From positions 928,001 through 992,000 of the forward strand of contig OZ241863.1 of NCBI GenBank assembly GCA_965203055.1: DNA of 64,000 nt, read 5' to 3'. This document shows positions 15,519 to 57,199 of the stretch, piece by piece; positions within the stretch are counted from its first letter, which is position 1; the number at the start of each line of letters is the position of its first letter. The notes beneath the pieces were generated by a model, which was not told the DNA's origin, searched no databases, and was given only the letters and a program-made list of their open reading frames with translations. This DNA comes from Spirochaetia bacterium (GTDB lineage: Bacteria; Spirochaetota; Spirochaetia; SZUA-6; Bin103). A program made the position numbers and the translations under genes.

Positions 15519-15724
15519 ATGCGCTGAGCCCCCTGGGGTACGGCAGGCTTCCTGATCCAGGCCGGACAGCGGCAGCCGCGAGCGGGGTGAGTAAGGACAC
15601 CCCAAGCGGGTAACCGGCGCCGGCGTCCGCCGGCGGCGTTCGTCACCCGGGCGAGCGGGATGGGCATTTCCAAAAATGTAGGTAAGCGTCAGGCCGCTTG
15701 GCGGCCAAGCTCAAGTCCCAGTGA

Positions 15725-17074
15725 TCACCGGTCTACCGGCGCCTGCCGATCGTCGCCGGGGCGCCCGAATCCGGCGCCGACGTGGCGGTAGCGGTGATGG
15801 GCGGCGCACAGCAGGCGGAGATTGTTCGGCTCGGCGGCGGCGCCGCAGGCATACGGCACCACGTGATCGATCTGCAGCAGGTGTTGGGAGCCGCAGCGGC
15901 GCCCGCTGGTGCGGTCCACGTAGCGGCAGCGGCCCCGGTCGCGCCGCCAGATCTCGCGCTTGACCGCCGCCGGGATGGCGCGGCCGGTCAAGCCCGGCTT
16001 CGCTGCCGAAATCCGGGTCTGCGGCGGCGCAGCCGGCTGCGCGCACGCCGCAGCCGGCCGGTCGAGGCGCCGCGTCTTCGGCGCCGAAGTGGTGTCGCCC
16101 GCCGGCTTCGCTGCCGAAGTGTCCGGTCGGTCAGCGGCTTCCTCTCCCGGCTGAGCCGGCGCCTGAGCCGATACCTTCGCCGCCGAAGGATCGGCGCGGT
16201 CCGCGCTGGCGTCCTGCTTCGCTGCCGAGGCAGCGCCGCGAGCCGAGGCCGCCTGCGTCTTCGGCGCCGAAGTTTGCTCGGCGCCTTTGGCCGGCGCGGC
16301 GCGCCGCCCGCGCGGCGGCCGGGCCGGGTCGTGACGGTCGAGCCCTTCCCGCACCAGCCGCCCCATGAGCTGCCCCATCGTCAGGTGCGGGTCAACGTGG
16401 GACAGGAGGCCCTGGAGCCGCTCCAAGCCGCGCCGGCACTCATCGTCGATCACCGCCTTGAGTTCGCAGCGCCCGCCGCCCAGGGGCCGCACCCGATCCG
16501 CCGGCGCCGCCAGCTCCGGGTCCACCTCGGCCAGCAACTGCATCACCTCCCGGCTGCTCTTGCCGGACGCCTGCTCCACCAGCTCCCGCCGCGCCTCCGA
16601 GTCCAGCACCGGCGCCGGCTTCCGCTCCGCGGACCGCGGCGGCGCCGAACCCTCCTGCGACTGAGCGGCAGCCCCGAACCCGGCCCCGCGCGGCGCGCTA
16701 CGCGCCGCGCGTTCCTTCTTGCGCTCCTGCCGGTCGAAGGCGTTCTGCAACTGCGCCGCCGCGTTCAGCGTCATCGCGCCATTCTGCAGGCGCTCGCGCA
16801 CGCCGTCGACGTCGGCACAGAGCCGCATCGCCTTGATGCGCCGCCACGCTGCGGCGTCGCTGTAACCCAGCTCGCGCACCGCGTAATCGAACAGGCTCGA
16901 GAACCCGCGGCGCAGATACAGGCGGCGCTTCTGAATCTCGCGCAGGTGGTCGATGACGACCACTTCGAGATGGTGTTCGATGCCGGAAAGTTCCTTGGTC
17001 CGCTCCAGCAGACGGTCGTCTGAGAGGGCGGAAACGGTAGTGGTGACGGCCCCGTTGGAAGCATGATTGTTCAT
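15725..17074 (-). CDS. HNH endonuclease with a long N-terminal domain and low-complexity linker
   Basis: RDRGRCRY..RRCGS..QIDHVVP..NNLRLLCAAHH; ATG 6 nt downstream of the -10 box. Confidence 0.88.
   Translation of the reverse strand: MNNHASNGAVTTTVSALSDDRLLERTKELSGIEHHLEVVVIDHLREIQKRRLYLRRGFSSLFDYAVRELGYSDAAAWRRIKAMRLCADVDGVRERLQNGAMTLNAAAQLQNAFDRQERKKERAARSAPRGAGFGAAAQSQEGSAPPRSAERKPAPVLDSEARRELVEQASGKSSREVMQLLAEVDPELAAPADRVRPLGGGRCELKAVIDDECRRGLERLQGLLSHVDPHLTMGQLMGRLVREGLDRHDPARPPRGRRAAPAKGAEQTSAPKTQAASARGAASAAKQDASADRADPSAAKVSAQAPAQPGEEAADRPDTSAAKPAGDTTSAPKTRRLDRPAAACAQPAAPPQTRISAAKPGLTGRAIPAAVKREIWRRDRGRCRYVDRTSGRRCGSQHLLQIDHVVPYACGAAAEPNNLRLLCAAHHRYRHVGAGFGRPGDDRQAPVDR
15998..16272. 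repeat. Six in-frame 14-bp quasi-palindromes CTTCG-N4-CGA(A/G)(G/A)
   Basis: Starts at 15998, 16076, 16106, 16175, 16217, 16259; they encode SAPK/SAAK motifs. Confidence 0.85.
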
Positions 17075-17080
17075 GACATA

Positions 17081-17109
17081 AGTATAATCATGGAACGTAT
17101 TTGAGTCAA
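17081..17109 (-). promoter_or_regulatory. Sigma70 promoter of the HNH gene (probably leaderless)
   Basis: TTGACT-17 bp-TATACT-6 nt-ATG; both boxes are conserved in copy 2. Confidence 0.8.
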
Positions 17110-17244
17110 GTTTTTTCGTCCGGTACGATGCCACCTGCGGGCGTGACTCGGCGGCACATTTCCAAGCGGCTGGGCGTTCCGTCAGATGCTACTGCCGAGA
17201 ATGTCGCCGGCGTCGACAGGGCGCGATTTGCCGGGTCTGCCGGG

Positions 17245-17358
17245 TACCGAGGGGCCGGCTTCGGCGCCGGCGCGGGCGGCGCTGAGGGCGAGCAGGCGGG
17301 CGAGCACTTCGTCGCGGACTTCGTCGGGCCAACGCCAACGGTAGGGTTTCTTACGGCC
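17245..17358 (-). pseudogene. Remnant of the Eco57I-like methyltransferase C-terminus, part B
   Basis: Translates GRKKPYRWRWPDEVRDEVLARLLALSA, matching ~56164-56250. Confidence 0.85.
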
Positions 17359-17487
17359 ACTGGCAGATGATCAGCGACCACTCGGCCTGGCGCCCGGCCC
17401 CTGGCCGCCAGCCGCCGAGATCATCGGCGAAGTGCGCTGGATGGCCCGCGTACTCTAGTTCAAGCGGGAGGACGGCTGCTTTCGTCC

Positions 17488-17742
17488 TTATTTCATCGAC
17501 CGGCCGGGGCCCTCCGCTATGGAGCGGTCGACCGGATTGTCCCAGTCCGGGTGGCCGTCATCCTTGATCGGATAGTACTTGCCTCCGGTGTAGGCGAGCT
17601 CAGTACCATCCGGCAGAACCGCTACCATGTCATACGATGGCCGCCTCGGAGGCCCGGCCGCGGCGGCTGCTATCGCTTCTGCGACGGTGGCCCGTCGGAT
17701 CGGACGTCCGGACATGTCGGTCGCGAGGTTCTGCTCAGCCAT
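17488..17742 (-). CDS. Hypothetical 84-aa protein
   Basis: GAGGAG RBS 5 nt upstream of the ATG; lower-GC segment lying between the two methyltransferase remnants. Confidence 0.55.
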   Translation of the reverse strand: MAEQNLATDMSGRPIRRATVAEAIAAAAAGPPRRPSYDMVAVLPDGTELAYTGGKYYPIKDDGHPDWDNPVDRSIAEGPGRSMK

Positions 17743-17837
17743 CCCAACTCCTCGAACAAGACATCGAACGCTTCCACTATAGGCAGAAACTCCTCGTACG
17801 GCCAGTGCTCGAGATGTGTCCTCGGGTCACCGTCGGT

Positions 17838-17993
17838 CCCAGGCGGCCTCGTCGATCTCGTAGTCGAGGAGGAGTCGCAGGCGATGGAAATGTCGCTCCC
17901 AGCCGCAGGCGTCGAGCACGGCGCGGTCCATGGCGGCGTGCAGCGCCGCGCGGTACTCGTAGTACGCCTTCCGGCGGCTTCGAGGGCGGGATC
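17838..17993 (-). pseudogene. Remnant of the Eco57I-like methyltransferase C-terminus, part A (frameshifted, internally deleted)
   Basis: DPALEAAG/AYYEYRAAL/HAAMDRAVLDA/LLLDYEIDEAAW matches 55915-56163. Confidence 0.85.
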
Positions 17994-18042
17994 GGTACCA
18001 ACAAATTGGAAATGCGCCCTGCGGGCGGGCGGGATCCGTGGG

Positions 18043-18071
18043 TTGTCAGCGTTGGGAGCGCGTGCTACCAT
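18043..18071 (+). promoter_or_regulatory. Putative sigma70 promoter of the repeat lipoprotein gene
   Basis: TTGTCA-17 bp-TACCAT with a TGn extension. Confidence 0.55.
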
Positions 18072-18117
18072 CGCGCCGTCCGGCTCGCGGGCCCAATCGC
18101 CCGGCAGCGGCCGGCGC

Positions 18118-19869
18118 GTGATCGACGGGCGGACACGCCACCGGAGGGGAATCTTGGGTAGAGCATCGCTGGGATCGCTGTTGCTGGCCGCCGGCATCGC
18201 CGCGTTGATGGCGTGCGCGCCCGCGGCGCGCCCCTCCGCCGCGCCCGCCGCCCCGGCCCAAGGGGGGGGGGGTAATCCGCCGAGCGAGCCGCTACCGCCG
18301 CCCTCGCAGCCGGCCGAGAAGACCTGGACGATCAGCGCGGCTGACTTTGGTGACGATGAACCGGACCTGACGGGCGCCGCGTCCAGCCGTTCCGCGCCGT
18401 ATGCCTGGGAGCGGCTCACCGGCGGCAAGGTGCGCGTTTCGATCGGCGGACAGGAGCTGCCGTTCACGAGCACGAGCGCCAAGCCGGTCTTCGCGTCCGA
18501 CATCTCCGGCGCGGAGTGGACGGTTGCCGCCGAGGTCCGGGCAGGCGCAGTGGTGCTGGTGCTCACCGCCCAGGATCGGTTGGTCGTCGGCGACACGGTT
18601 GAATCGGTAGACATCACCAACCCGGGGAGCGGCTACGCGGCGGACCCGACCGTGACGTTTTCGGCGCCGCCGGCCGGTACCACCGCGACCGGCACCGCGG
18701 TGAGGCCCAGCGGCGTTGATTCGGTAGACATTACGACTGCCGGGACCGGCTACACGGCGGTTCCAACCGTGACGTTTTCGGCGCCGCCGTCCGGCGGCAC
18801 CACCGCAACCGGCGCCGCAGTGGGGTCCGGGTACGTCGATTCCGTGACGGTCGGGACTGCGGGGAGCGGCTACACTTCTGCCCCTTCCGTGACGTTTTCG
18901 AGCGGCGGCGGCAACAGCGCAGCCGGCACCGCGGTGCTGCAAAGCGGCGTAGCGTCAGTGACGATCACGAACCGGGGGGTCGGCTATACCTCTGATCCCA
19001 CCGTGACGTTTGGGGCGGCGCCGTCCGGCGGCACCACGGCGACCGGCACCGCAACGCGGCGCACCGAATTGGGTCAATTGCTGATTACGAACACGGGGAG
19101 CGGTTACACGTCTGCCCCGACCGTGACGATTGGCGCTCCGCCGGCCGGTGGCACCCAGGCAACCGCAACAGCAAGTATAAGTGGCGCCGGTACAGTGCAA
19201 GCCCTGAGCTGGGAGAACCGGGGGAGCGGCTACACCTCCGCCCCTTCCGTCACGTTGTCGGGCGGAGGGGGCAGCGGTGCGGCCGCGAGGGCGACGATAT
19301 TGACGACCAGGGTAGAGGAAGTGAGGATCACGAACCGGGGGAGCGGCTACACCTCTGCCCCAACCGTCACGTTTTCGGCGGCGCCGGGCGGCGGCACCAC
19401 GGCCGTCGGCACCGCGGTGCTGCAAAGCGGCGTAGCGTCGGTGATGGTCACGACCGGGGGAAGCGGCTACACCTCCGCCCCGACCGTGGCCTTTGGGGCA
19501 GCGCCGAGTAGCGGCGCCACGGCCGCCGGAACCGCGGTCATACGCTACGGCGTAGCGTCGGTGAGGTTCACCAACCGCGGGAGCGGCTACACGTCTGCCC
19601 CAACCGTGACGTTTTCGGCGGCGCCGGGCGGCGGCACCACGGCCGTCGGCACCGCGGTGCTGCAAAGCGGCATAGCGTCGGTAAGGGTCACCAACGGCGG
19701 AAGCGGCTACACGTCTGCCCCGACCGTGACGTTTTCGGCGCCAGCCAGCGGTACCCGCGCGACCGGCACGGCACGACTGGCGGAGAGCGGCTACGATCCA
19801 TACCAGAACCTGTATTGGGCGCGCCAAACGCTGGCGGGCAAGCCGCTTCTGGTGCGGCTGGCGGATTAG
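18118..19869 (+). CDS. Surface lipoprotein with ten ~40-aa GSGYTSAPTVTF repeats
   Basis: Lipobox LMAC, Pro-rich tether, ten repeats; start approximate. Confidence 0.78.
   Translation: MIDGRTRHRRGILGRASLGSLLLAAGIAALMACAPAARPSAAPAAPAQGGGGNPPSEPLPPPSQPAEKTWTISAADFGDDEPDLTGAASSRSAPYAWERLTGGKVRVSIGGQELPFTSTSAKPVFASDISGAEWTVAAEVRAGAVVLVLTAQDRLVVGDTVESVDITNPGSGYAADPTVTFSAPPAGTTATGTAVRPSGVDSVDITTAGTGYTAVPTVTFSAPPSGGTTATGAAVGSGYVDSVTVGTAGSGYTSAPSVTFSSGGGNSAAGTAVLQSGVASVTITNRGVGYTSDPTVTFGAAPSGGTTATGTATRRTELGQLLITNTGSGYTSAPTVTIGAPPAGGTQATATASISGAGTVQALSWENRGSGYTSAPSVTLSGGGGSGAAARATILTTRVEEVRITNRGSGYTSAPTVTFSAAPGGGTTAVGTAVLQSGVASVMVTTGGSGYTSAPTVAFGAAPSSGATAAGTAVIRYGVASVRFTNRGSGYTSAPTVTFSAAPGGGTTAVGTAVLQSGIASVRVTNGGSGYTSAPTVTFSAPASGTRATGTARLAESGYDPYQNLYWARQTLAGKPLLVRLAD
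18598..19790 (+). repeat. Intragenic tandem repeats, ~120-bp period, 10 copies
   Basis: Recurrent GGGAGCGGCTACAC...CCGTGACGTTTTCG; boundaries approximate. Confidence 0.85.
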
Positions 19870-20721: not shown

Positions 20722-21345
20722 GTGCCTATCACCAGGAGCCAAGTCGATCGGAACAGCTTCAATCTCGCGTATCGGTTCCCTTATGAGCTTCGGATCAGCG
20801 ACTTCGATTCGGCGATGCAGGACGTTTATGACTTCTTCTTTGATGTCAATTCTCATTTGGTAGGCAAAGGGTTGCAGCGGCTCGACGACATGCTGCGGCC
20901 GGCAATCATGTCCGGCATGCTGTCCGACATGGTAACGGCGAGTCTGGCGAAGCACTCTCGGGTGCTTACGGAGAACACCTATTTCAACGGCCACCCCGAC
21001 CTCGTTGTACGGGGCGTCTACGCTCAAAACGCTGTCAAGGCCGGTAGCCAGGGCGTCGAGATCAAGACGACTAGAAAGAAGGGAGGCGCCGTCGACACGC
21101 ACGGAGCCCGTGATCAGTGGATGTGTGTGTTCGTCTACGATATAGACAGCGAAACGGAACCGGCGATCGACAGAAATCCGATGACGTTTACTGAAGTCTA
21201 TCTGGCCAACGTAACGGTCAATGACTTCAGAAGGAATCCAAGAGGCGAACTCGGGACACGGACCGCTACGTTGCACCGGCACGGGGTGGAGAAGCTGCGC
21301 GCGAATTGGCTCTATCGCGTACCGGGTGTCATGCTGGGCCGTTGA
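20722..21345 (+). CDS. Putative type II restriction endonuclease (PD-(D/E)XK)
   Basis: GHPDLV...GVEIK motif; lower GC; converges on and overlaps a DNA methyltransferase gene. Confidence 0.65.
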   Translation: MPITRSQVDRNSFNLAYRFPYELRISDFDSAMQDVYDFFFDVNSHLVGKGLQRLDDMLRPAIMSGMLSDMVTASLAKHSRVLTENTYFNGHPDLVVRGVYAQNAVKAGSQGVEIKTTRKKGGAVDTHGARDQWMCVFVYDIDSETEPAIDRNPMTFTEVYLANVTVNDFRRNPRGELGTRTATLHRHGVEKLRANWLYRVPGVMLGR

Positions 21346-22477
21346 CCGGAAGCTCGGCCAGGAGCGGCATCGCTCTGGCGGCCATCTCGAAATAGTGATG
21401 GTCCTTTTCGACGCCCACCGAGGCATAGCCCACGGCCTGCGCCGCCGCGAGCGTCGATCCCGCTCCGGCGAAGGGATCGACCACCACGCCTTCGCCGAGG
21501 GGCAGCACGCTGCGCACGAGTTGCCGGAGAAACGCCTGCGGCTTCAGACTGGGGTGAGGAGCGATGCCCCTCTCCCGCTTTCCGGTCGGGGCCGACCTGA
21601 TGACGTCGCCGAACGGCGACCGGTCCGACGGCCGGCGAAATCCTCCGGTACGCCATTTCCGCAGGTTGTCCTGAACCCTGCCTTCGACCGGTTTGCGAAA
21701 CAGTACCCACGGTTCCCACATCGACCTCGGCAGCACGCTGACGCCTTCGAACTCCTCGTGGGCGCCCTTGGGGCGATCCCCGCCGCGCATGGTCATGACC
21801 AGCCTGATGATCTCGCCCCTTCGTTGCAGCCCGCCGCCCGCCAAGGCCGCGGACACGATGTGCGACAGCAGCGGACTGGAGGCGACCACGACATTCGCCC
21901 CCGGTACCAGCTTCGGGATCAGAAGGCGCGTCCAGATGAAGAAGAACTCATGGAGATACTTCTTCTGCGAATCGGTCAGCGTGGTGAATCGCGGCAGCGG
22001 AGATCGCGCGTGACCGTCGAACGATGGCGGCAGTCTCCAAACTCCTCCCCGGCCTGCTCTCAGCTTCGACTGTTCTTTCGGCGTGTACTCCTGAAGCCCG
22101 TACGGCGGGTCGGTGACCACCGCATGGATCGTATTGTCTTCTCGCTCATCCAACCAGTCGAAGCAATCGCCGTGAACCAGCGTAGCCTTGCCGTGGTGGT
22201 ATGGTTCCTGCCACAGGGACAGCCCCGGCAGCAGGCGCTGCACGCCGCTTGCGGATTCCGTTCTCAACCGATAGACGCCGCGCCGTTCTTTGACGAAGAG
22301 CGAAGGAGTGTTCAGGCGCAGAAACGACCGAACGGAGGACTCGGGTGTCGGGCCGTTTACTTTGGCGACCCGCTGCGCGACCTGCTTGGCTGACAGGCCC
22401 TCGGAGGTGAGGCTCAGGATATCGAGAATCGCGTCTCGTACCTGGCCGGGAGCGTATCTGAGAGCCTGCTCACTCAT
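21329..22477 (-). CDS. Beta-class N4/N6 DNA methyltransferase with a putative N-terminal winged HTH
   Basis: VTDPPY precedes HPSLKP and DPFAGAGST; ~70-aa HTH-like N-terminal extension. Confidence 0.88.
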   Translation of the reverse strand: MSEQALRYAPGQVRDAILDILSLTSEGLSAKQVAQRVAKVNGPTPESSVRSFLRLNTPSLFVKERRGVYRLRTESASGVQRLLPGLSLWQEPYHHGKATLVHGDCFDWLDEREDNTIHAVVTDPPYGLQEYTPKEQSKLRAGRGGVWRLPPSFDGHARSPLPRFTTLTDSQKKYLHEFFFIWTRLLIPKLVPGANVVVASSPLLSHIVSAALAGGGLQRRGEIIRLVMTMRGGDRPKGAHEEFEGVSVLPRSMWEPWVLFRKPVEGRVQDNLRKWRTGGFRRPSDRSPFGDVIRSAPTGKRERGIAPHPSLKPQAFLRQLVRSVLPLGEGVVVDPFAGAGSTLAAAQAVGYASVGVEKDHHYFEMAARAMPLLAELPVNGPA

Positions 22478-22484
22478 TCGGAGG

Positions 22485-22514
22485 ATTATATGACGTCCGG
22501 ACGTCTAGGATCAA
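22485..22514 (-). promoter_or_regulatory. Methyltransferase promoter with a 14-bp palindrome in the spacer
   Basis: TTGATC-18 bp-TATAAT-7 nt-ATG; spacer contains GACGTCCGGACGTC (22492-22505). Confidence 0.75.
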
Positions 22515-22653
22515 GCGGCGGTGCCCGGTGCCCTTGGCTTGGCCGGCCTGGCCGGCCTTGGCCGGTGGCCCTTGTGAGAAGGGCGCGGATTCTGTTATAT
22601 GAGGACCTGCCGAGGCGGCGCCTTCACGTCTTGGTGCGGAGAGGCAGGAGCAG

Positions 22654-40701: not shown

Positions 40702-40973
40702 CGTCCGGGCGACGATAGCCCAAAACCGCGCCCGGCGCCACCGCGCCGACAGGAAATACGCTATCATGTCGCCCGCAGGACATGGCATACCGTAGTAGCG
40801 CAGCATGGGAGACGATTTGTCTTGGGGACGTTGCGGCTATCACCATGGGCCAGTCACCGCCGACGAGCTGCTCGCAACGAATGGGGCGCATTTCCCAAAT
40901 GTAGGTAAGCGACAGGCCGCTTGGCGGCCAAGCCCAAGTCCCAGTGTAAGATGACGTTTCTCGGCGATCTTGA

Positions 40974-42378
40974 TCACCGGTCTACCGGCGCCTGACGATC
41001 CTCGCTGGGGCGCCCGAATCCGGCGCCGGCGTGGCGGTAGCGGTGATGGGCGGCGCACAGCAGCCGGAGATTGTTCGGCTCGGCGGCGCCGCCGCAGGCA
41101 TACGGCACGACGTGATCGATCTGCAGCAGGTGTTCGGAGCCGCAGCGGCGCCCGCTGGTGCGGTCCACGTAGCGGCAACGGCCCCGGTCGCGCCGCCACA
41201 CCTCGCGCTTGACCGCCGCCGGGATGGCGCGGCCGGTCACGCCGCCGGCCTTCGCTGCCGAAGTTTCGGTCCGCGCCGGCGGCGCGGGCTGCGTCGCGCC
41301 CGCCGTCGCAGCCTGACGGCCGGGGCGCCGCGTCTTCGGCGCCGAAGTGGTGTCGCCCGCCGGTTTCACTGCCGGTTTCACCGCCGAAGTGTCCGGGCGG
41401 TCCGGGCCGCGGTTCGCCTGCAGCGGCGAAGCGGCTTCGTCTCCCGGCTGCGCCGGCGTCTGAGCCGATACCTTCGCCGCCGAAAGAGCGGCGCGGTTCG
41501 CGCTGACCTCCTGCTTCGCTGCCGAGGCGGCGCTGCGAGCCGAGGCCGCCTGCGTCTTCGGCGCCGAAGTTTGCTCGGCGCCTTTGGCCGGCGCGGTGCG
41601 CCGTCCGCGCGGCGGCCGGGCCGGATCGTGGCGGTCGAGACCTTCCCATACCAGCCGCCCCATGAGCTGCCCCATCGTCAGGTGCGGATCGACGTGGGAC
41701 AGGAGGCCCTTGAGCCGCTCCAAGCCGCGCCGGCACTCATCGTCGATCACCGCCTTGAGTTCCCAACGCCCGCCGCCCAGAGGCCGCACCCGATCCGCCG
41801 GCGCCGCCAGCTCCGGGTCCACCTCGGCCAGCAACTGCATCACCTCCCGGCTGCTCTTGCCGGACGCCTGCTCCACCAGCTCCCGCCGCGCCTCCGGGTC
41901 CAGCACCGCCGCCGGCGCCGGCTTCCGCTCCGCCGGCCGCGGCGGCGCCGAGCCGTTCTGCGACTGGGCGGCAGCCCCGAACCCGGCCCCGCCCGGCGCG
42001 CTACGCGCCGCCCGTTCCTTCTTGCGCTCCTGCCGGTCGAACGCATGCTGCAACTAGGCGGCCGCGTTCAGCGTCATCGAGCCATTCCCGCAGGCGCTCG
42101 CGCACGCCCTCCACGTCCGCGCAGAGGCGCATCGCCTTGATGCGCCGCCACGCCGCGGCGTCGCTGTAACCCAGCTCGCGCACCGCGTAATCGAACAGGC
42201 TCGAGAACCCGCGGCGCAGATACAGGCGGCGCTTATGAATCTCGCGCAGGTGGTCGATCACGACCACTTCGAGATGGTGTTCGATGCGGGAAAGTTCCTT
42301 GGTCCGCTCCAGCAGGCGGTCGTCTGAGAGGGCGGAAACGGTAGTGGTGACGGCCCCGACCGAACCCTGATTGTTCAT
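40974..42378 (-). pseudogene. HNH endonuclease pseudogene, paralog of 15725-17074
   Basis: +1 frameshift near 42087-42090 and CAG>TAG at 42054-42056 relative to copy 1. Confidence 0.85.
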
Positions 42379-42384
42379 GACATA

Positions 42385-42413
42385 AGTATAACCATGGAAA
42401 CCACTTGAGTCAA
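42385..42413 (-). promoter_or_regulatory. Sigma70 promoter of HNH copy 2
   Basis: TTGACT-17 bp-TATACT-6 nt-ATG. Confidence 0.78.
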
Positions 42414-42495
42414 GTTCTTCGGCCTGGAATATGCCACCTGCGGGAGTGACTCGGCGGCGCATTTCCAAGCGGCTAGACGTTCCGTCAGATGCTGC

Positions 42496-42571
42496 TCGTT
42501 GTTGTTTCACCATGAGCGCGGCGCGGTACTCGTGGTACGCCTTTCCCGGCGGCGGCTTCGAGGGCGGGATC
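42496..42571 (-). pseudogene. Short remnant of the Eco57I-like methyltransferase C-terminus
   Basis: DPALEAA/KAYHEYRAALMV matches HPDLEAAGKAYYEYRAALMV at 55915-55975. Confidence 0.8.
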
Positions 42572-42677
42572 GGTACCAACAAATTGGAAGTGCGCCCCAA
42601 CGAATGGGTGCCCGTGACGCGGACCATGAGCGGTGCTATCATCGGGTAGCGATGAAGCAGCTTGATCGAGGTTCGTC

Positions 42678-43778
42678 ATGACCAGCTATCAGGTGGTGGC
42701 GTGGGGCCGGCCGCTGGAGCGGCGCACCTGCCCGACGCCCGACCCGCAGGGCACTGAAGTGCTGTTGCAGGTGGAGATGTGCGGGGTGTGCCACAGCGAC
42801 CTGCACATCCACGAGGGGTATTTCGACATGGGCGGCGGGCGCCGGCGCATGCTCACCGATCTGGGGGTGCAACTGCCGCTCACCCTGGGTCACGAGCCGG
42901 TCGGCACCGTGGCCGCGGTCGGCCCGGAGGTGGATGACCCGCAGGCCGCGGGGGTGCCGGTCGGCGCGCGCCGGGTGGTGTGGCCGTGGGTCGGGTGCCG
43001 GCAATGCGCGGCCTGCCGGCGCGAAGAGGACATCCTGTGCGAGCGCGGGCGCTACCTGGGGGCGCGGGTCGACGGCGGCTTCAGCGACCACCTGCTGGTG
43101 CCGCATCCGCGCTACCTGCTGCCCTGCGCCGGCATCGCGCCGGAGGTGGCGGCCACCTACGCCTGCGCCGGCATTACCGGCTACGCGGCGGTGAAGCGCG
43201 CCCTCACCACCTACCCGGAGAGCGCCGGCACGCTGGGCCGGATCGGTTCCGGCGACACCCTGCTGCTGGTGGGCGCCGGCGGCGTCGGGTTGAGCGCGCT
43301 GCGCGCGGCCCGCGCCCTCACCGCGGCGCGCATCGTGGTGGCGGACATCAGCGCCGAGAAACGGGCGCTGGCCGAGGCCAACGGCGCCGACGCCGCCATC
43401 GACGCCGCCGACCCGGACGCCGGGCGCCGGCTCAAGGAGCGGAGCGGCGCCGGCGTCGCCGCGGCGGTGGACTTCGTCGGCCGGCCGGAGACGTCGCAGA
43501 TGGCGATCGACTCGCTGCGCCGCGGCGGCACCCACGTCGTCGTGGGCATGTTCGGGGGCGCGCTGACGGTGTCTATACCCGACTACGTCTACAAGCTGCT
43601 GGCGGTACGCGGCTCGCACCTGGGGACGCCGCAGGACCTGCGCGAACTGATCGAGCTGCGCCGCGCCGGCCACATCGAGCCGCCGCCGATCGCGCGCCGG
43701 CCGCTGGCGGAGATAGACGAGGTGTTCACCGATCTGCACGCCGGCCGCATCCCCGGCCGCGTGGTGCTGGTACCGTAG
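42678..43778 (+). CDS. Zinc-dependent alcohol dehydrogenase
   Basis: CGVCHSD, GHE, CRQCAAC..C, GAGGVG. Confidence 0.92.
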   Translation: MTSYQVVAWGRPLERRTCPTPDPQGTEVLLQVEMCGVCHSDLHIHEGYFDMGGGRRRMLTDLGVQLPLTLGHEPVGTVAAVGPEVDDPQAAGVPVGARRVVWPWVGCRQCAACRREEDILCERGRYLGARVDGGFSDHLLVPHPRYLLPCAGIAPEVAATYACAGITGYAAVKRALTTYPESAGTLGRIGSGDTLLLVGAGGVGLSALRAARALTAARIVVADISAEKRALAEANGADAAIDAADPDAGRRLKERSGAGVAAAVDFVGRPETSQMAIDSLRRGGTHVVVGMFGGALTVSIPDYVYKLLAVRGSHLGTPQDLRELIELRRAGHIEPPPIARRPLAEIDEVFTDLHAGRIPGRVVLVP

Positions 43779-43780
43779 CG

Positions 43781-44677
43781 ATGGGCGGCCGAAGCGCGGC
43801 GGCCGCGGCGCCGCGGCGGGTGGTGATCACCGGCGCCGCCGGCTACGTCGCCGGCCTCATGCTGCCGGACCTGCGCCGCCGCTATGACCTGACGCTGCTC
43901 GACGTGCGCCGGGACAATCGCGGCGGCGCGGCGGTGGACGGCGTGACGCTCGCGGACCTGACGGAGAAGGACCGCGACCGCTACCGCGCTCATTTCGCCG
44001 GCGCGGACGCGGTGGTGCATACCGCCTTCGTGCGCCCGCGCGGCGGCGCCGCCAACCTCGGCGCCATCGCCTCCCGGAGCGAAGCGCGGTTCCGCTCCGA
44101 GTTCGCCAACGTGGCGATGGCCTACAACATCTATCAGACGGCGCGCGAGGAAGGGGTGCGGCGGGTGGTGATGATCAGCTCCAATCATGCCGCGGACTTC
44201 TACGAGCCGCTGATCCTCGACGGCGCCTGGGACTTGGTCACCCCGGAGATGCAGGAGCGCGCGGTGGGCTACTACGGCTGGGCCAAGGCCTCCTACGAGC
44301 ACCTGGGGTTCATCTTCGCCCAGGGCGGCCCGGGCGAGGCGCCGCTGGAGAACGTGCAGATTCGCATCGGCGGCCCGCGCGAGGATGACCTGGAGCGCGC
44401 CGAACCGGGCAACATGCGCCAGGTGCGGCGCGGGTTGGCGGTGTACCTGAGCCGCCGCGATCTGGTGCAACTGATCGTCAAGAGCGTCGAGACCTCCGAC
44501 ATCCGCGACCGCCACGGGGTGCCGTTTCAAGTGTTCTACGGCATCAGCGACAACTCGCACGCCTTCTGGAGCATCGCCAACGCGCGCCGCGTCATCGGCT
44601 ACGCGCCGCGCGACAACAGCGAGGTGCGCTTCCGGGAGCAGCTTGCCCGCCATCTGGCCGCGGCCGGCGGCGAGTGA
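43781..44677 (+). CDS. NAD(P)-dependent epimerase/dehydratase-family oxidoreductase (uronate dehydrogenase-like)
   Basis: ITGAAGYVA, SSNHA, YGWAK. Confidence 0.85.
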   Translation: MGGRSAAAAAPRRVVITGAAGYVAGLMLPDLRRRYDLTLLDVRRDNRGGAAVDGVTLADLTEKDRDRYRAHFAGADAVVHTAFVRPRGGAANLGAIASRSEARFRSEFANVAMAYNIYQTAREEGVRRVVMISSNHAADFYEPLILDGAWDLVTPEMQERAVGYYGWAKASYEHLGFIFAQGGPGEAPLENVQIRIGGPREDDLERAEPGNMRQVRRGLAVYLSRRDLVQLIVKSVETSDIRDRHGVPFQVFYGISDNSHAFWSIANARRVIGYAPRDNSEVRFREQLARHLAAAGGE

Positions 44678-46518
44678 GCACTTTCGCCCCAATGGCTGAG
44701 GCGGCGCCGCGCGCCCGCGTAGCCGACCTGTTCCGCGACCACCTGCCGCTGATCGGATGGTCGGCGGCCTGCGGTCTGCTGTTCGCCGGGACCACGTTGA
44801 TCCCGCCGCTGTACGTGCGCGGCCTCATCGCCGCCATCACCGAACCGCCCGCCGGCGCCGCCGGCGGCCCGGACGGCGTCTCGCTGGCGGTGGTGGCCGC
44901 GGCGCTGGTCGGGGTGTTCCTGCTGCGCGGCGCGGCGCGCTACCTGTACGGCCTCACCTCGCATCATGCCGCCTACGCGCTGCTGGCCGACCTGCTGCAG
45001 CGGGTCTATCGTCACCTGCAGCAACTCTCGCACCGCTTCTTCGCCGGCAACCGCACCGGGACGCTGATCGCGCGTTCGGTCAGCGACGTGGAGGCGCTGG
45101 AAGACTTCGTCGCGCACGGCGTGCCGGAGCTGGTGCAGGCGGTCGCCATTCCGCTGGCGATGATCGTGGTGCTGGTCAGCATCGATCCATCGCTCACCCT
45201 GGTGGTGCTCAGCCCGCTGCCGGTTGCCGCGCTGGTGATCTATCTCCTAACCCGCAACGTGCGCGGCAAGTGGCGCGGCGTGCGCGAACAATACGCGCGG
45301 GTAGTGGCCCTGGTGGAGGACAACCTGCAGGGGATGAGCGAGATCAAGTCGTTCACCCGCGAGGCCGAGCAGGAGCGGCGCGTGGCGCGGCTGGCCGGAG
45401 ATTACCGCGACGCCATCATCCGCGCTACCCACCGCTCGCTGCTGCCCTCCGGCATCGTGGAGATGACCGGCGGCGTGGGCGTGATCCTGGCGGTGGCCGC
45501 CGGCGGCGCCACCGCCCTGCGCGGCGGGCTGGAGGTGGCCGATCTGTACCTGTTCCTCGCCTACCTGACGTTCATCTACCAGCCGTTCCTCAAGCTGGCG
45601 GACATCGGCGAGGTGCTGCACCGCGCCGTGGCCAGCTACCAGCGCATCGACGAGCTGCTCGCCGTCGAGCCGGACATCGTCAGCCCGCCGCACGCCGTGC
45701 TGCCGGCGTCCTGCTCCGGCTCGGTGGAACTGGATGCGGTGACGTTTTCCTACGGTCCGGGAGCGCCGGCGCTGCGCGGGATCAGTCTGGCGGCGGCGCC
45801 GGGGGAGGTGGTTTCCCTGGCCGGACCCACGGGCGCCGGTAAGACCACGGTCACGCGGCTGGTGCCGCGCTTCTACGACTCCGACGCGGGCCGCGTGCTG
45901 GTCGGCGGCCACGACGTCCGCACGCTCGATCTGGCGTACCTGCGCCGGCAGGTGGCGGTGGTCAGCCAGGAGGTGTTCCTGTTCCATGGCAGCGTGCGCG
46001 ACAACATCCTGTTCGGGCGGCCCGACGCCGGCGAACAGGCGTTCCGGGCCGCCGCCCGCGCGGCCAACGCCGACCCGTTCATCCGCCGGCTGCCGGATGG
46101 CTACGACACGGTGGTGGGCGACCGCGGCGTGCGCCTCTCCGGCGGCCAGCGCCAGCGCGTGGCGATTGCCCGCGCGCTGCTCAAGGACGCGCCGATCCTG
46201 ATCCTGGACGAGGCCACCTCGTCGGTGGACGCCGAAACCGAAGAGCTGATTCAACAGGCGATGCAGCGGCTGCTGTCCGGGCGCACCGCGCTGATCATCG
46301 CCCACCGCCGCTCCACCCTGGAGCGCGCCGACCGGCTGATCGTGCTGGAGGCCGGCCGCGTCATCGAAAGCGGCTCCGCGGCCGAACTGCTCGCCGCCGG
46401 CAGCCGCTATCGCAGTCTCGTCGACGCCCAACTGGAAGCGGCGCCGTTCGCCGCCGGCCGGCAGCCCGGCGCCGCGGTCGGCGGCGGCCGCGCGTTGGCC
46501 GCCGCCGCGGCGCGGTAG
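44674..46518 (+). CDS. ABC exporter, fused permease/ATPase
   Basis: TM domain; [25 protein letters not shown]. Confidence 0.9.
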
Positions 46519-52287: not shown

Positions 52288-55200
52288 ATGCCTGCATCTG
52301 ATCCGAACACGCGCGCGCACCTGGAATGGCTGGGGTTCATCCAGCCGCACGGTCTGGTGGTGTCGCCGCCGGCGCTGCTCAAGGCGGGCGCGTTCGTCAA
52401 CCGGCAGGATACCCACCGGCAAGCGCTGCTCGCCGGCTGCGCCGAGGAACGCGAGCTCGCTCCCGACCGGCCGCCCACCGCGTGCATCCGCGACTTCCGC
52501 GAGTTCGCCGGTACGGTGCTCGGCTGGGGATTCTCGCCCCGGGGCTACGCCGGCTTCACTGAAGAAACTCCGATCCCTGAAGAACTCACGCTGCCGCTGC
52601 CCGATTACGGCGAGACCCTGCGCCCCGACTTCGCGGTGCGCGAACGCGACCCGGCGAACGGCGACTCGCCGTGGCAACTGCTGGTGCAGGTGCTGGCCGC
52701 CGGCCAGGAGTTCGACCGTCCGGCGCCCGGCCCCGGCGGGCTGGACGCATCCGCCCAGGGGCGCGCGGAACGCCTGCTGCGCGCCACCGGGGTGCGCGCC
52801 GGCGTGCTGGTCAACGGAGTTGCGCTGCGCCTGATCTCCGCCCCGCACGGCGAGAGTTCCGGCTGGATGGATTTCCGCTTCGCCGACCTGCTCACCACCG
52901 CCGGACGCCCGCTCTGCTCCGCCCTGCACCTGCTTCTGTCCGAACAGCGCCTGCTGGCGTTGCCGCGCCATGAACGCCTCACCGCCGTGCTGGCCGACAG
53001 CCGCCTCTACCAGAACGAGGTCTCCGAGCGCTTGGCCGAGCAGGTGCTGCATGCGTTGTACGAACTGGTACGCGGCTTCCAGAACGCCCATGCCGCCACC
53101 GACGGCGCGCTGCTGAGCGAGCCGCTGGCCGCCGGCGGGGACCGCAACGCCATCTACCGCGGGCTGCTGACCGTGATCCTGCGGCTGGTGTTCCTGCTGT
53201 ACGCGGAGGAGCGCGGCCTGCTGCCGAAGGACGAGACCTTTGCGCGCCACTACTTGCTGGGAGGCCTCTACCGGCGGCTGCGCAAGGACGCTGCGGCCTA
53301 CCCGGACACGATGGATCAGCGCTATGGCGCCTGGGCGCAGTTGGTGGTGCTGTTTCGCCTGCTCCACGACGGGGTTGCGGCGGACCGCACCGGCGGCGCG
53401 GTGAGTCTGCCGGAGCGCCGCGGTGCGCTGTTCGATCCGGACCGCTACCGGTTCCTGGAAGGCCGTAGCGGCGGCGGGTCGCGGCAGCGGCATGCGCGGC
53501 TGGAGCCGCCGCGGGTGTCGGACGGGGTGGTCTACCGGGTGCTGGAAAAGCTGCTGGTGCTGGACGGGGAGCGGCTCTCCTACCGGACGCTGGACGTGGA
53601 GCAGATCGGCTCGGTGTACGAGACGATCATGGGGTTTCGGCTGGAGACCGCGACCGGGCGCTCGCTGGCGGTCAAGCCGGGCAAGAAGCTGGGCGCGCCC
53701 ACCACCATCGACCTCGACGCGCTGCTGGCGCAGCCTTCGGGGCGCCGCGGGCGCTGGCTGCAGGAGCGCGCCGACCGCCCCGTCAGCGCCGCGGTCGCCA
53801 AGGGGCTGCGCGCCGCGCGGACGGTGAACGACCTGCACGCGGCGCTGGACCGGGTGCTGGACCACGCTGCGACGCCGGACCTGGTGCCGCGCGGCGGGCT
53901 GGTGCTGCAGCCCAACGAGGAGCGGCGCCGTTCCGGCTCGCACTACACGCCGCGCGAGCTGACCGAGCCGATCGTGCGCCACACCCTGGCGCCGCTGCTG
54001 GAGCGGCTACGCGCCGCGGACGGCGGCGCGCCGCGCCCGGAGCAGGTGCTCGAACTCAAGATCTGCGATCCGGCGATGGGCTCGGGGGCGTTTCTGGTGG
54101 AGACCTGCCGCCAGCTTGCCGACGCGCTGATCGAGGCGTGGGCCGCGCACGGCGCCGCGCCCGACGTTCCGCCGGACGAGGACGAGGTGACCTTCGCGCG
54201 CCGGCTGGTGGCGCAGAAGTGTCTGTACGGCATCGACCGCAACCCGATGGCGGTGGACTTGGCCAAGGTGTCGCTGTGGCTGAGCACGCTGGCGCGCGAC
54301 CATCCGTTCACCTTCGTGGACCACGCCTTCCGCCGCGGCGATTCGCTCCTCGGGCTGACGCGGCGGCAGCTCGAAGCGCTGCACTGGCAGGGCGGGCAGC
54401 CGATCCTGGCCGGCTTCGGGGTGCGCGAGGCGATGGAACAGGCCGCGGCGTTGCGGCGCCGGATTCGGGAAGCGGACGACACCGTGACCGACCGGCAGTT
54501 GCAGCGTCTGTGGCGCCGCGCGCAGGACGCGCTGGCCGAGGTGCGGCGGTTCGGCGATCTGACGCTGGCGGCGTTCTTCGAGGGCTCGAAGCCGAAGGAG
54601 CGCGCGGCGCGTCTGGAGGCATATCAGGAAGCGATCCTGACGCGGCAGGCGCGGCGCTACGCCGCGGAGTTGAAGGCGCGCCGTAACGCCGAGGTGCCGT
54701 TTGCGCCGTTTCACTGGGAGATCGAGTTTCCGGAGGTGTTCGAGCGGGAGAACCCCGGCTTCGACGGCTTCGTCGGCAACCCGCCGTTCGCGGGCAAGAA
54801 CAACGTTGCCGCCGGCAACGTCGCCGGCTATCCGAGCTGGCTGAAGGAACTACACGCGCGGAGCCACGGCAACGCCGACCTGGTGGCGCACTTCTACCGG
54901 CGCGCGTTCGACCTGCTGCGCGGCGGCGGCGCGTTCGGTCTGATCGCCACCAACACGATCGCCCAGGGTGACACCCGTTCCAGCGGCCTGCGCTGGATCT
55001 GCGAACGGGGCGGGGAAATCTACCGCGCCGTCAAGCGCGTCAAATGGCCGGGCGATGCGGCGGTGGTGGTCAGTGTGGTGCACGTGGAGAAGGGGCAAGT
55101 TTGTCGGCAGAAGATGCTCGACGGCGTCCCGGTGGACCGCATCACCGCGTTCCTGTTCCATCGCGGCGGTCACGCCGACCCGGTGCGGCTTGCGGCGAAC

Positions 55201-56340
55201 GCCGGCAAGAGCTTTGTCGGGAGCTACATACTCGGCATGGGATTCACCTTCGACGACACCGACCGGAAGGGAGTCGCGTCATCGCTCGCCGAGATGCGGC
55301 GGCTGGTCGCTCAGGAACCGCGCAATCGGGAAGTGATCTTCCCCTACATCGGCGGCGAGGAGTTGAACACCGGCCCCACTCACGCGCCTCATCGCTACGT
55401 CATCAACTTTCACGACTGGCCCCTGCACCGGGCGAAGATCGGAGAATCGTGGGCCGCGGCTGACGCGGAGCGAAGGCGAGCGTTACGGCGCCGTCCGCTC
55501 GTGCCGCACGACTACCCCGGCCCGGTTGCGGCCGATTGGCCGGACCTGCTGAGAATCGTCGAGTCGAAGGCCAAGCCAGAGCGCGACGTTCAGAACCGTA
55601 AAGCACTTCGAGAGCGTTGGTGGCATTACGCCGAAAAGCGACCGGGCCTCTACGCCGCCATCGCTGGCCTGGACCGAGTGCTGGTAGTCTCCCGTGTCGG
55701 CCAACACGCGGCATTTACCTTCCTCCCAAGAGACATGGTGTACGCGGAATCCATGATCGTCTTTCCGTTGACTTCGTACGCCGCACTCTGCGCATTACAA
55801 TCCCGCCCTCACGAAGTTTGGGTCCGTTTCTTCGGATCGTCGCTGGAAGAACGGCTCCGCTACACCCCTTCCGACTGCTTCGAGACCTTCCCGTTCCCGG
55901 AAGGCTGGGAAACTCATCCCGACCTCGAAGCCGCCGGCAAGGCGTATTACGAGTACCGCGCCGCGCTCATGGTGGACAACGGCGAAGGCATGACCGGCAC
56001 CTACAACCGCTTCCACGACCTCTACGAGACCGACCCGCGCATCGCCGAGCTCCGCGAGATGCACACCGCCATGGACCGCGCCGTGCTCGACGCCTACGGC
56101 TGGACCGACATTCCCACCGCCTGCGGCCTCCTCCTCGACTACGCGATCGACGAAGCCTCCTGGGGCCGCAAGAAGAAGCCGTACCGCTGGCGTTGGCCCG
56201 ACGAAGTCCGCGACGAAGTGCTCGCCCGCCTCCTCGCCCTCAACGCCGACCGCGCCGCCGCCGAAGCCCGCGCCGGCACCGCCGCCGGCCCCTCGCCCGC
56301 TGCCGAAGGCGGAAGTGGACCGGATCATGCTATCGTCTGA
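52288..56340 (+). CDS. Large N6-adenine DNA methyltransferase (Eco57I / DISARM DrmMI-like)
   Basis: EQIGSVYE, GSHYTP, CDPAMGSGAFL, YGID, FHWEIEFPEVF, GNPPF, RYTPSDCFETFPFP. Confidence 0.88.
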   Translation: MPASDPNTRAHLEWLGFIQPHGLVVSPPALLKAGAFVNRQDTHRQALLAGCAEERELAPDRPPTACIRDFREFAGTVLGWGFSPRGYAGFTEETPIPEELTLPLPDYGETLRPDFAVRERDPANGDSPWQLLVQVLAAGQEFDRPAPGPGGLDASAQGRAERLLRATGVRAGVLVNGVALRLISAPHGESSGWMDFRFADLLTTAGRPLCSALHLLLSEQRLLALPRHERLTAVLADSRLYQNEVSERLAEQVLHALYELVRGFQNAHAATDGALLSEPLAAGGDRNAIYRGLLTVILRLVFLLYAEERGLLPKDETFARHYLLGGLYRRLRKDAAAYPDTMDQRYGAWAQLVVLFRLLHDGVAADRTGGAVSLPERRGALFDPDRYRFLEGRSGGGSRQRHARLEPPRVSDGVVYRVLEKLLVLDGERLSYRTLDVEQIGSVYETIMGFRLETATGRSLAVKPGKKLGAPTTIDLDALLAQPSGRRGRWLQERADRPVSAAVAKGLRAARTVNDLHAALDRVLDHAATPDLVPRGGLVLQPNEERRRSGSHYTPRELTEPIVRHTLAPLLERLRAADGGAPRPEQVLELKICDPAMGSGAFLVETCRQLADALIEAWAAHGAAPDVPPDEDEVTFARRLVAQKCLYGIDRNPMAVDLAKVSLWLSTLARDHPFTFVDHAFRRGDSLLGLTRRQLEALHWQGGQPILAGFGVREAMEQAAALRRRIREADDTVTDRQLQRLWRRAQDALAEVRRFGDLTLAAFFEGSKPKERAARLEAYQEAILTRQARRYAAELKARRNAEVPFAPFHWEIEFPEVFERENPGFDGFVGNPPFAGKNNVAAGNVAGYPSWLKELHARSHGNADLVAHFYRRAFDLLRGGGAFGLIATNTIAQGDTRSSGLRWICERGGEIYRAVKRVKWPGDAAVVVSVVHVEKGQVCRQKMLDGVPVDRITAFLFHRGGHADPVRLAANAGKSFVGSYILGMGFTFDDTDRKGVASSLAEMRRLVAQEPRNREVIFPYIGGEELNTGPTHAPHRYVINFHDWPLHRAKIGESWAAADAERRRALRRRPLVPHDYPGPVAADWPDLLRIVESKAKPERDVQNRKALRERWWHYAEKRPGLYAAIAGLDRVLVVSRVGQHAAFTFLPRDMVYAESMIVFPLTSYAALCALQSRPHEVWVRFFGSSLEERLRYTPSDCFETFPFPEGWETHPDLEAAGKAYYEYRAALMVDNGEGMTGTYNRFHDLYETDPRIAELREMHTAMDRAVLDAYGWTDIPTACGLLLDYAIDEASWGRKKKPYRWRWPDEVRDEVLARLLALNADRAAAEARAGTAAGPSPAAEGGSGPDHAIV

Positions 56341-56362
56341 GCGCTTGGAGGGATTAGGCGCC

Positions 56363-57199
56363 ATGACCAGCTCTACGCTCGCTCCCGCTGCTATCGAGTA
56401 CCCCACCGAGGACGGTGTCCCTATGGCCGAAACCGATGCCCAGGGCATCCCGCTCATGTACGCGGTCACCGGACTGCGCGATTTCTTCCTCTGCCGTCCC
56501 GACGTCTATGTTTCCGGCAACCTGCTGATCTACTACCAGGAGGGCAACTTCGATGCCTCGGTAGCGCCCGACGTGTTCGTGGTGTTCGGGGTGCCGAACC
56601 ACATCCGGCCGACGTACAAGGTGTGGGAGGAGGGCAAGAGCCCGGACTTCGTAATGGAGATCACCTCGCGCCACACGCGGCGCAAGGATCAGGGGGCGAA
56701 GCGGGAGTTGTACGAGTCGCTGGGGGTGCAGGAGTACTGGCAGTACGATCCGACGGGAGACTACCTGGAGCCGCGGTTGCGCGGCATGCGTCTGATGGGC
56801 GGAGAGTACGAGGAGCTGACGGAGACCCGGCTGGGGGACGGAACGCTGGTGATGTACAGCGCGGTGCTGGGGCTGGAAGTACGGATCGAGGAAGGGGAGC
56901 TGCGCTTTCACGACCCTGAGACGGGAGAGAGCATATCGACGTTCACCGAGCAACGACAGGGGCGGCAGCAGGCCGAACGGGAGTGGCAGCAGGAGCGGTT
57001 GGCGCGACAGCAGGCCGAACGGGAGCGGCAGCAGGAGCGGAAGGCACGGCGGCAGGCGGAGCGGGAGCGGCAGCAGGCGGAACAGGCACGGCAGCAGGCG
57101 GAAGCCGCGCGTCATGCGGCGGAAGCGCAGGTGGCAGAGCTGCGGGCACTGCTGGCGCGGCAGCACGATCCCGGCGCTGACTCCGGTCCGGGGCGGTAA
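56363..57199 (+). CDS. Uma2-family endonuclease with a C-terminal coiled-coil
   Basis: VAPDVFVV, PDFVMEITS, GVQEYWQYDP; QAERERQQ repeats. Confidence 0.88.
   Translation: MTSSTLAPAAIEYPTEDGVPMAETDAQGIPLMYAVTGLRDFFLCRPDVYVSGNLLIYYQEGNFDASVAPDVFVVFGVPNHIRPTYKVWEEGKSPDFVMEITSRHTRRKDQGAKRELYESLGVQEYWQYDPTGDYLEPRLRGMRLMGGEYEELTETRLGDGTLVMYSAVLGLEVRIEEGELRFHDPETGESISTFTEQRQGRQQAEREWQQERLARQQAERERQQERKARRQAERERQQAEQARQQAEAARHAAEAQVAELRALLARQHDPGADSGPGR
56962..57103 (+). repeat. 21/42-bp intragenic tandem repeats encoding a heptad coiled coil
   Basis: Recurrent CGGCAGCAGG(C/A)..GA units. Confidence 0.7.

Follow-up and report, generated by a model that had tools for sequence, protein, structure and literature searches.

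In Bacillus cereus, the element MIC231 is mobilised by the insertion sequence (IS) IS231, and elements of this type usually occur in few copies per genome. The architecture itself has a name: in the available text of the ISfinder/ISsaga report, a cassette that has IS ends, lacks a transposase and can be activated by a cognate transposase is a 'mobile insertion cassette' (MIC; PMC3129680, citing De Palmenaer et al. 2004). Herein we describe an element from a Spirochaetia bacterium, found in a stretch of 64,000 nt (OZ241863.1, positions 928,001-992,000; the whole of it referred to below as the window) that sits in a single 4,557,819-bp contig (genome G000). The focal element, copy 1, is a unit of ~1.7 kb bounded by terminal inverted repeats (TIRs) at window positions 40884-42597. 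With a probability of roughly 85%, we consider it to be a MIC, that is, a non-autonomous element with 24-bp ends of the ISKra4 family and a gene for an HNH endonuclease in the place of the transposase. An initial annotation of the window had taken the architecture not to be a described family; it is in fact the one to which the name MIC already applies. The element shares with MICs their inverted IS ends, the lack of a transposase, a passenger gene, a duplication of the length made by the IS and a cognate IS in the same genome. It differs from MICs such as MIC231 in having an ISKra4-family partner rather than one of the IS4/IS231 type, in a cargo that is an HNH nuclease and is under purifying selection, and in its presence at 67 loci, with 38 large copies, a number very high for a cassette with a cargo gene and far above that usual for MICs.

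The second point of comparison is the ISKra4 group itself (p-MULT 4). According to the available text of Guerillot et al. 2014 (PMC3942029), ISKra4 and IS256 belong to the same Mutator-like superfamily, in which the inverted repeats are 18-39 bp long and the direct repeats 8 or 9 bp; a number of ISKra4-group elements insert in a set orientation 13-17 bp from sigma-A promoters, and four ISKra4 elements carry extra genes beside the transposase. The transposase of the IS that we pair with the cassette passes the NCBIfam cut-off for this family, and both IS and cassette have traits within the reported ranges, namely 24-bp repeats, 8-9-bp duplications and an offset of 14-16 bp from promoters. The cassette differs in lacking a transposase of its own; what the same paper describes, in the portion available to us, are ISs as well as transposons that carry extra genes, rather than cassettes without a transposase. 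A full-text search of the literature found no description of an HNH-carrying ISKra4 cassette, and the supplementary tables of PMC3942029 may list related elements. At least within the full-text literature searched, the ISKra4 partner, the selected HNH cargo, the derivation from a methyltransferase-plus-HNH element, the copy number and the parallel cassette in a congener are apparently new.

Ends, duplications and target choice shared with a resident IS

Direct reading of copy 1 agreed with the boundaries given in the initial annotation. The 24-bp left TIR (GGGCGCATTTCCCAAATGTAGGTA, 40884-40907, plus strand) and the right TIR (42574-42597, minus strand; reverse complement GGGCGCACTTCCAATTTGTTGGTA) are alike at 19 of 24 positions when counted position by position, and the 9-bp target site duplication (TSD) CAACGAATG touches both ends as an exact match, at 40875-40883 and 42598-42606. 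Both 24-mers are beyond chance, with 0 of 100 shuffles matched at ≤3 mismatches. When the nine open reading frames (ORFs) of copy 1 and of a second copy in the window were compared with Pfam (E ≤ 0.001), HNH was the sole match and no transposase or recombinase domain was found, in line with the earlier claim that neither copy encodes a DDE, HUH or recombinase enzyme.

The element had been thought to be present twice. We found that its family in G000 comprises 67 BLASTN clusters that together occupy 72,643 bp, or 1.6% of 4,557,819 bp; in 38 of these the alignment extends over 1000 bp or more, and 16 are complete at both ends. That further copies should end at the same motifs and be flanked by duplications had been proposed as a check, and this is what we observed. 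Among the 67 clusters 34 left and 24 right ends were located, and in the BLASTN matches homology repeatedly sets in at element base 1-3 and breaks off at base 1711-1714 amid unrelated flanks, the identities to copy 1 being mostly 84-95%. No transposase remnant lies between the ends in any of the 67 clusters. An 8-9-bp flank repeat (≤1 mismatch, boundary shift of ≤2 nt allowed) accompanies 10 of the 16 complete copies as compared to 13 of 240 mismatched left/right pairings, an enrichment of ~12-fold (binomial P = 1.3e-9); in three complete copies the TSD is an exact 9/9 match at the boundary, and in one more it is so after a 1-nt shift.

These boundaries bear on whether the copies arose by transposition at all. 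An ordinary gene family may instead have been spread by segmental duplication and recombination, and in keeping with this, eight methyltransferase paralogues and the Uma2-family genes of the same genome are multi-copy without visible ends, while four copies in a second genome (G011) lie inside longer segments shared with G000, such that some copies do travel with their flanks. Set against this, homology ends at the same base on both sides at dozens of loci with unrelated flanks, target duplications are strongly enriched over the control pairings, and the distance between insertions and promoters is fixed. We regard segmental duplication as scarcely credible for the family as a whole.

A fuzzy search for the cassette ends returned extra sites outside the HNH copies, and these belong to an autonomous IS with matching TIRs, the existence of which the initial annotation had suggested looking for. 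The IS is 1523 bp long and is present in G000 as eight full copies, seven of them at ≥99.9% identity, along with one internally deleted copy and two fragments at 85-89% identity. Its ends are GGGCGCACTTCCAATTTGTAGGTA and GGGCGCACTTCCAAAACGTAGGTA, and duplications of 8-9 bp, for example CGGCTCAAC, flank all eight full copies. The transposase is encoded by a single ORF of 467 aa that is open at eight loci; it scores 216.8 bits against the NCBIfam ISKra4 model (NF033572, cut-off 205) and also matches Pfam UPF0236. IS256 had been named as a typical family for such ends. An NCBIfam scan (E ≤ 0.01) gave ISKra4, ISLre2, ISH6 and ICE_Mbov_0401 without an IS256 model, and we rejected an IS256 identity for the partner; the earlier suggestion holds at the level of the Mutator-like superfamily, in which the available text of PMC3942029 places both families. 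The right end of the cassette, which is of the left inverted repeat (IRL) type, agrees with the left end of the IS at 23 of 24 bases. The left end, of the right inverted repeat (IRR) type, agrees with the right end of the IS at 21 of 24 bases, and here the likeness continues to ~40 nt.

The IS and the cassette also choose their targets alike. Taking TTG as the start of a -35 box, we found this triplet 14-16 nt outward of the IS right end in 6/8 copies, compared to 2.2% of control windows, and equally far from the MIC left end in 12/34 copies, compared to 3.8% of controls (P = 2.4e-9). At the opposite ends the corresponding counts are 0/8 for the IS left end and 2/24 for the MIC right end. One IS copy is nested in an HNH cassette (G000 623721-625243), exactly 16 nt upstream of the HNH promoter and with an 8-bp TSD, TTCCGGGC, the empty site being provided by other cassette copies; this suggests that the cassette's own strong promoter attracts the IS. 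At copy 1, the neighbouring alcohol-dehydrogenase-like gene (42678-43778) has a promoter at 42614-42642 on the plus strand (GTGACG-17-TATCAT, with TG before the -10 box) whose -35 box begins 16 nt from the right end of the cassette, a spacing that fits the 13-17 bp rule of the ISKra4 group as given in the available text of PMC3942029.

The case for mobilisation in trans rests chiefly on the ends, duplication length and oriented target choice that the IS and the cassette share, and these lend support to the initial suggestion of a non-autonomous, passenger-carrying element. We propose that the DDE (Mutator-like) transposase of the 1523-bp IS would recognise the cassette ends in trans and insert the cassette 14-16 bp upstream of sigma-70-type -35 boxes, generating the 8-9-bp duplications.

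The HNH cargo and a longer methyltransferase form

The initial annotation had assigned an HNH gene to both copies in the window, and this stands for copy 2, where the gene is intact. In copy 1 it is a pseudogene (40974-42378, minus strand) that is broken by a 1-nt insertion near 42089 and then by a TAG at 42056-42058; the HNH domain is C-terminal and is recognised by Pfam on the 359-aa C-terminal ORF (E 1.6e-6). Upstream lies a sigma-70-type promoter, TTGACT-17-TATACT (42385-42413, minus strand); the search gave two promoter-like sites compared to a shuffle mean of 0.2. The promoter, with the start codon 6 nt on, is common to copies 1 and 2. As the ATG follows the -10 box by only 6 nt, the HNH mRNA is probably leaderless.

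Copy 2 spans ~15657/15662 to 18019 and shares 88% identity with copy 1 across the aligned element and 92.8% across the HNH gene. What had been reported for it holds with respect to the HNH gene, the promoter, the unrelated flanks and the right TIR (GGGCGCATTTCCAATTTGTTGGTA, 17996-18019, minus strand; one mismatch with copy 1), and requires amendment at the left end, which is an altered TIR (GGGATGGGCATTTCC..., GGGATGGGCATTTCCAAAAATGTAGGTA; 15657-15685, plus strand). Its HNH gene (15725-17074, minus strand) encodes 449 aa from the ATG at 17072-17074; a mechanical ORF of 469 aa begins at an upstream GTG, and residues 413-450 of the latter match Pfam HNH. By direct reading, the promoter TTGACT-17-TATACT is at 17081-17109 (minus strand). 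Copy 2 is the longer of the two because it has kept more of a segment derived from a methyltransferase gene and holds a 481-bp insert (17354-17834) that is unmatched elsewhere in the genome. This insert splits the methyltransferase remnant into a distal part (17190-17353, minus strand, the ...KKPYRWRWPDEVRDEVLARLL... region) and a proximal part (17835-17995, minus strand), and its 84-aa ORF (17488-17742, minus strand) has no Pfam or PADLOC match. Beyond the right end of copy 2, an in-frame array of 117-120-nt repeats (18582-19765) lies within a 772-aa ORF (17551-19869, plus strand).

Across the genome, 20 of the 38 large copies retain an ORF that is 420 aa or longer and contains the N-terminal as well as the HNH motifs. 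The Nei-Gojobori dN/dS ratio of 19 intact copies is 0.43 overall, and by region is 0.15 for the N-terminal 125 codons, 0.69 for the low-complexity middle and 0.46 for the C-terminal part. The HNH cargo is thus kept by purifying selection. The protein matches Pfam HNH at E 5.7e-5 and belongs to a large family (15,254 cluster representatives at E ≤ 0.001, 792 at E ≤ 1e-30). An AlphaFold model built on an alignment of 35 sequences has a mean pLDDT of 78, with confident regions at residues ~10-130, 150-255 and 365-435 and predicted disorder at ~260-355. The predicted C-terminal domain resembles the HNH domains of McrA, IscB and Cas9 (Z 6.5-7.4). Two further likenesses fall below the trust level of VIA-align and serve as leads only: residues 32-190 are weakly like the DNA-binding domains of ParB/KorB (Z 5.5-6.1), and residues 32-254 are weakly like ribbon-helix-helix domains (Z 4.6-5.3). 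Foldseek of the model against the PDB returned nothing at E ≤ 0.001, and comparison of the sequence with solved structures gave marginal matches to HNH domains alone (E 0.29-0.56). PADLOC had no match for the protein, and none of 33 pattern matches in viral contigs was confirmed as a relative. The predicted architecture of the cargo thus comprises helical domains of DNA-binding-like character, a disordered linker and, at the C-terminus, the HNH nuclease; its expression is presumably driven by its own consensus promoter. Our best guess as to function is a DNA nuclease of a selfish or defence type, formerly partnered with a methyltransferase.

A selected nuclease could itself be the agent of spread, either as a homing endonuclease or as the nuclease of its own transposition, in which case the IS-like ends would be secondary. 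Like free-standing HNH homing endonuclease genes, the cassette gene is a selfish-looking, multi-copy HNH gene with its own promoter. The strong constraint on its N-terminal part, the 20 intact copies and the DNA-binding-like domains predicted beside the nuclease all point in this direction, as do the HNH genes that are multi-copy in 18 other genomes of the family, in two of which no inverted ends were found (G012 and G018; see below). Homing, however, concerns one conserved target and does not give rise to 24-bp inverted ends or, at unrelated sites, to 8-9-bp duplications, whereas the cassette has unrelated flanks and a DDE-type insertion signature, its ends, duplication length and oriented promoter-proximal target being those of a DDE IS. 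Moreover, copies with a broken HNH gene, the focal one among them, still have complete ends and a perfect duplication, and the HNH cassettes of a congener again bear the ends of a resident IS. Spread driven by the HNH protein is in our judgement quite unlikely.

The layout of the cassette recalls that of another repeated HNH gene. REP13E12 / DUF222-HNH elements are multi-copy units of ~1.4-1.7 kb with a single gene, the product of which is alpha-helical in its N-terminal region and carries its HNH domain at the C-terminus; the cassette is alike in size, in its single gene and in both parts of the protein. To our knowledge, no IS-type ends or partner IS have been reported for REP13E12, and the elements of this name in Mycobacterium tuberculosis are referred to as repetitive elements in the available text of PMC10589994. 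The cassette protein differs in being unmatched by Pfam DUF222 (PF02720), even at E ≤ 10. Among its distant relatives, 2/12 have DUF222 matches that are below threshold (E 0.0014-0.0049), and a 'DUF222' cluster of a protein atlas, in which DUF222 is found on 12% of the members, scores 0.94, which serves as a lead. The likeness to mycobacterial REP13E12 is likewise a lead and not a membership.

The remaining part of the cassette, which lies between the HNH promoter and the right end, shows homology to the 3' terminus of a full-length gene in the same window (52288-56340, plus strand) that encodes a DrmMI/MmeI-like type IIG methyltransferase of 1350 aa, with Pfam Eco57I and MmeI domains and a PADLOC DrmMI match (PDLC02643, 1306 bits, residues 7-1333). 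In copy 1 the remnant (42495-42573, minus strand) is a short 3' end, from ~codon 1209 on, that abuts the right TIR. The full-length gene is one of eight paralogues in G000, the source family of the remnant, and the others lie near 1.40, 1.77, 2.07, 2.49, 2.60, 2.84 and 4.39 Mb; their proteins are 84-92% and their nucleotides 91-94% identical. The HNH gene directly follows the methyltransferase gene in four of the eight, and in two of these four a right-type TIR that points inward is found ~95 bp upstream of the methyltransferase ATG. An inward TIR, a methyltransferase gene and an HNH gene in this order indicate a longer form of the element, TIR / methyltransferase / HNH / TIR. Nearly all short copies displayed share one junction, in which the TIR abuts ~codon 1209, and this common junction points to one deletion event, after which the short form was amplified. 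The cassette therefore appears to be a deletion derivative of a longer TIR / DrmMI-like methyltransferase / HNH / TIR element, long to short being the direction that we infer. In this scenario, one deletion from just inside the right TIR to ~codon 1209 would have turned the longer ancestor into the short form, the numbers of which would then have risen in a burst to 38 large copies or more. Consistent with such a burst, a tree built from 33 G000 copies is star-like, its median terminal branch being 0.041.

The same junction argues against each copy being a decayed autonomous transposon that once had both transposase and HNH genes and lost the transposase independently. ISKra4 elements with extra genes do exist (the four in the available text of PMC3942029), and in a congener one IS copy directly adjoins an HNH cassette. 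A common TIR/methyltransferase junction nevertheless implies one origin and subsequent amplification without a transposase; in addition, the clusters hold no transposase remnant (0/67), and the IS that does lie inside a MIC has an 8-bp duplication of its own. Independent decay is therefore very unlikely.

Several other features of this region are recorded here. Homology between the methyltransferase repeats starts only ~45 bp before the ATG and stops near the stop codon, and relatives hold several methyltransferase copies with a variable stretch at ~residues 1043-1083. None of drmA, drmB, drmC and drmD was found among the six window ORFs neighbouring the methyltransferase gene, and the gene downstream of it is of the Uma2 family (56315-57199, a putative restriction endonuclease); Uma2-family genes are multi-copy at 70-85% identity and elsewhere adjoin cassette or methyltransferase copies (G000 1194924-1195788 and 2486774-2487736). 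For an ORF at 44674-46518, PADLOC gave matches to two models of the methylation-associated defence system, mad3 (E 3.7e-29) and mad8, which places defence-type genes between the focal cassette and the methyltransferase.

Related genomes and the age of the focal insertion

We searched 31 genomes, including G000, and only G000 and G011 proved to have cassettes of the G000 type, 84-93% identical and with the same ends. With the G000 IS transposase as the query, G011 yielded no transposase. Four G011 copies nest among the G000 copies in the tree, and at least two lie in segments that the two genomes share at 94-99% identity, in backbones that are otherwise 77-82% identical; in one example, a 5.5-kb segment has 95% identity overall and a 2-kb flank at 99.4%. 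The copies that lie within such shared segments have travelled with their flanks, and the segments suggest recent exchange of DNA between the G000 and G011 lineages. Segments at 92-99% identity between these genomes are seen at locus L015 compared to G000 2789267-2795226 and at window positions 20723-22520 compared to G011.

A parallel case is found in G010, of the same genus. Here, HNH cassettes of ~2.0 kb have different ends, GGGTGCGAACGTCTGAAACGGTATTGA and GGGGTGCGAACGCCGAAAGCGGTATTGA, duplications of 8-9 bp and the same internal layout, including the HNH promoter motif TTGACT-17-TATACT. Their right end is 97% identical over 33 nt to the left end of a second IS, resident in G010, the 434-aa transposase of which is 36% identical to the G000 transposase and matches the whole length of the ISKra4 model with 193.7 bits, slightly below the cut-off. 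Given an identity of 57% between the G000 and G010 HNH proteins and of only 36% between the transposases of their IS partners, the module has probably switched partner at least once. Multiple copies of related HNH genes occur in each of the 18 other family genomes searched; in the case of the G012 and G018 HNH repeats, we could identify no inverted ends with confidence.

In G009, also of the same genus, the genes that flank copy 1 are 158 bp apart with no element between them, as compared to 1913 bp in the window. Among the contigs of public sequencing runs X1, X3, X4 and X11, none has a joint that skips 40884-42606. Of the public runs listed as holding this DNA, none is recorded as RNA. Contigs of X1 and X3 bridge both junctions and one of X4 bridges the right one, these junction-bridging contigs coming from three studies. 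In the X4 contig, 12 other letters replace 40862-40941, a stretch that includes the left TSD and left TIR, and this is, judging from that contig, a strain variant in which the left end of the cassette has been lost. As run contigs bridge the junctions and none skips the element, the insertion at the focal site is old and common to the sampled populations.

A number of observations weigh against a MIC moved by the resident IS. No movement was observed, and mobilisation in trans is what we infer from the shared features. The MIC ends are not identical to the IS ends, differing at 1 and 3 of 24 positions, and 6/16 complete copies are without a recognisable duplication. In the rarer orientation, the focal copy has its promoter beyond the right (IRL-type) end and not the usual left end. 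The right end of the long form has no subterminal similarity to the IS: a likeness to the IS left end had been considered and was dropped, given that 12/49 aligned bases inside the TIR agreed, which is the chance level. The exact empty CAACGAATG site, which the initial annotation had expected in relatives, was not recovered, the G009 spacer being too diverged for alignment base for base, and the bridging run contigs show the insertion to be common to the populations sampled. The MIC copies are also old (~4-15% diverged), with terminal branches of ~0.025-0.07 substitutions/site and no near-identical pair in G000. With nearly identical IS copies and diverged MIC copies, the burst of MICs may predate the IS population that is now present, and an older relative of the IS, of which the fragments at 85-89% identity remain, may have mobilised the MICs. 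Finally, the cargo may be non-passive, as purifying selection is unexpected for a passive passenger.

Proposed transposase parasitism by an HNH cassette

The cassette provides an unusually clear case of parasitism in trans among bacterial elements, in which a gene cassette without a transposase is tied to an autonomous partner by its ends, by duplication length and by oriented promoter targeting. Its scale is unusual as well, as a gene-carrying, non-autonomous element of 1.7 kb makes up such a share of the genome. The longer form suggests that a transposon with a methyltransferase and a nuclease can shrink to a nuclease-only cassette that multiplies. Because the cassette lands just upstream of promoters and has a strong promoter that faces outward, it may alter the expression of dozens of host genes.

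The pairing of the HNH module with two different ISKra4-like ISs, in G000 and in G010, raises the tentative and on balance doubtful proposal that this HNH family, possibly of the REP13E12/DUF222 kind, habitually parasitises ISKra4-like transposases from a position between borrowed ends, and that the nuclease is selected for aiding spread or persistence, for example through cleavage of unoccupied sites or in the role of an addiction or defence module. The finding offers a lead on why DUF222-like HNH genes repeat in many genomes and, if such parasitism were general, it would explain the multi-copy HNH genes of many bacteria.

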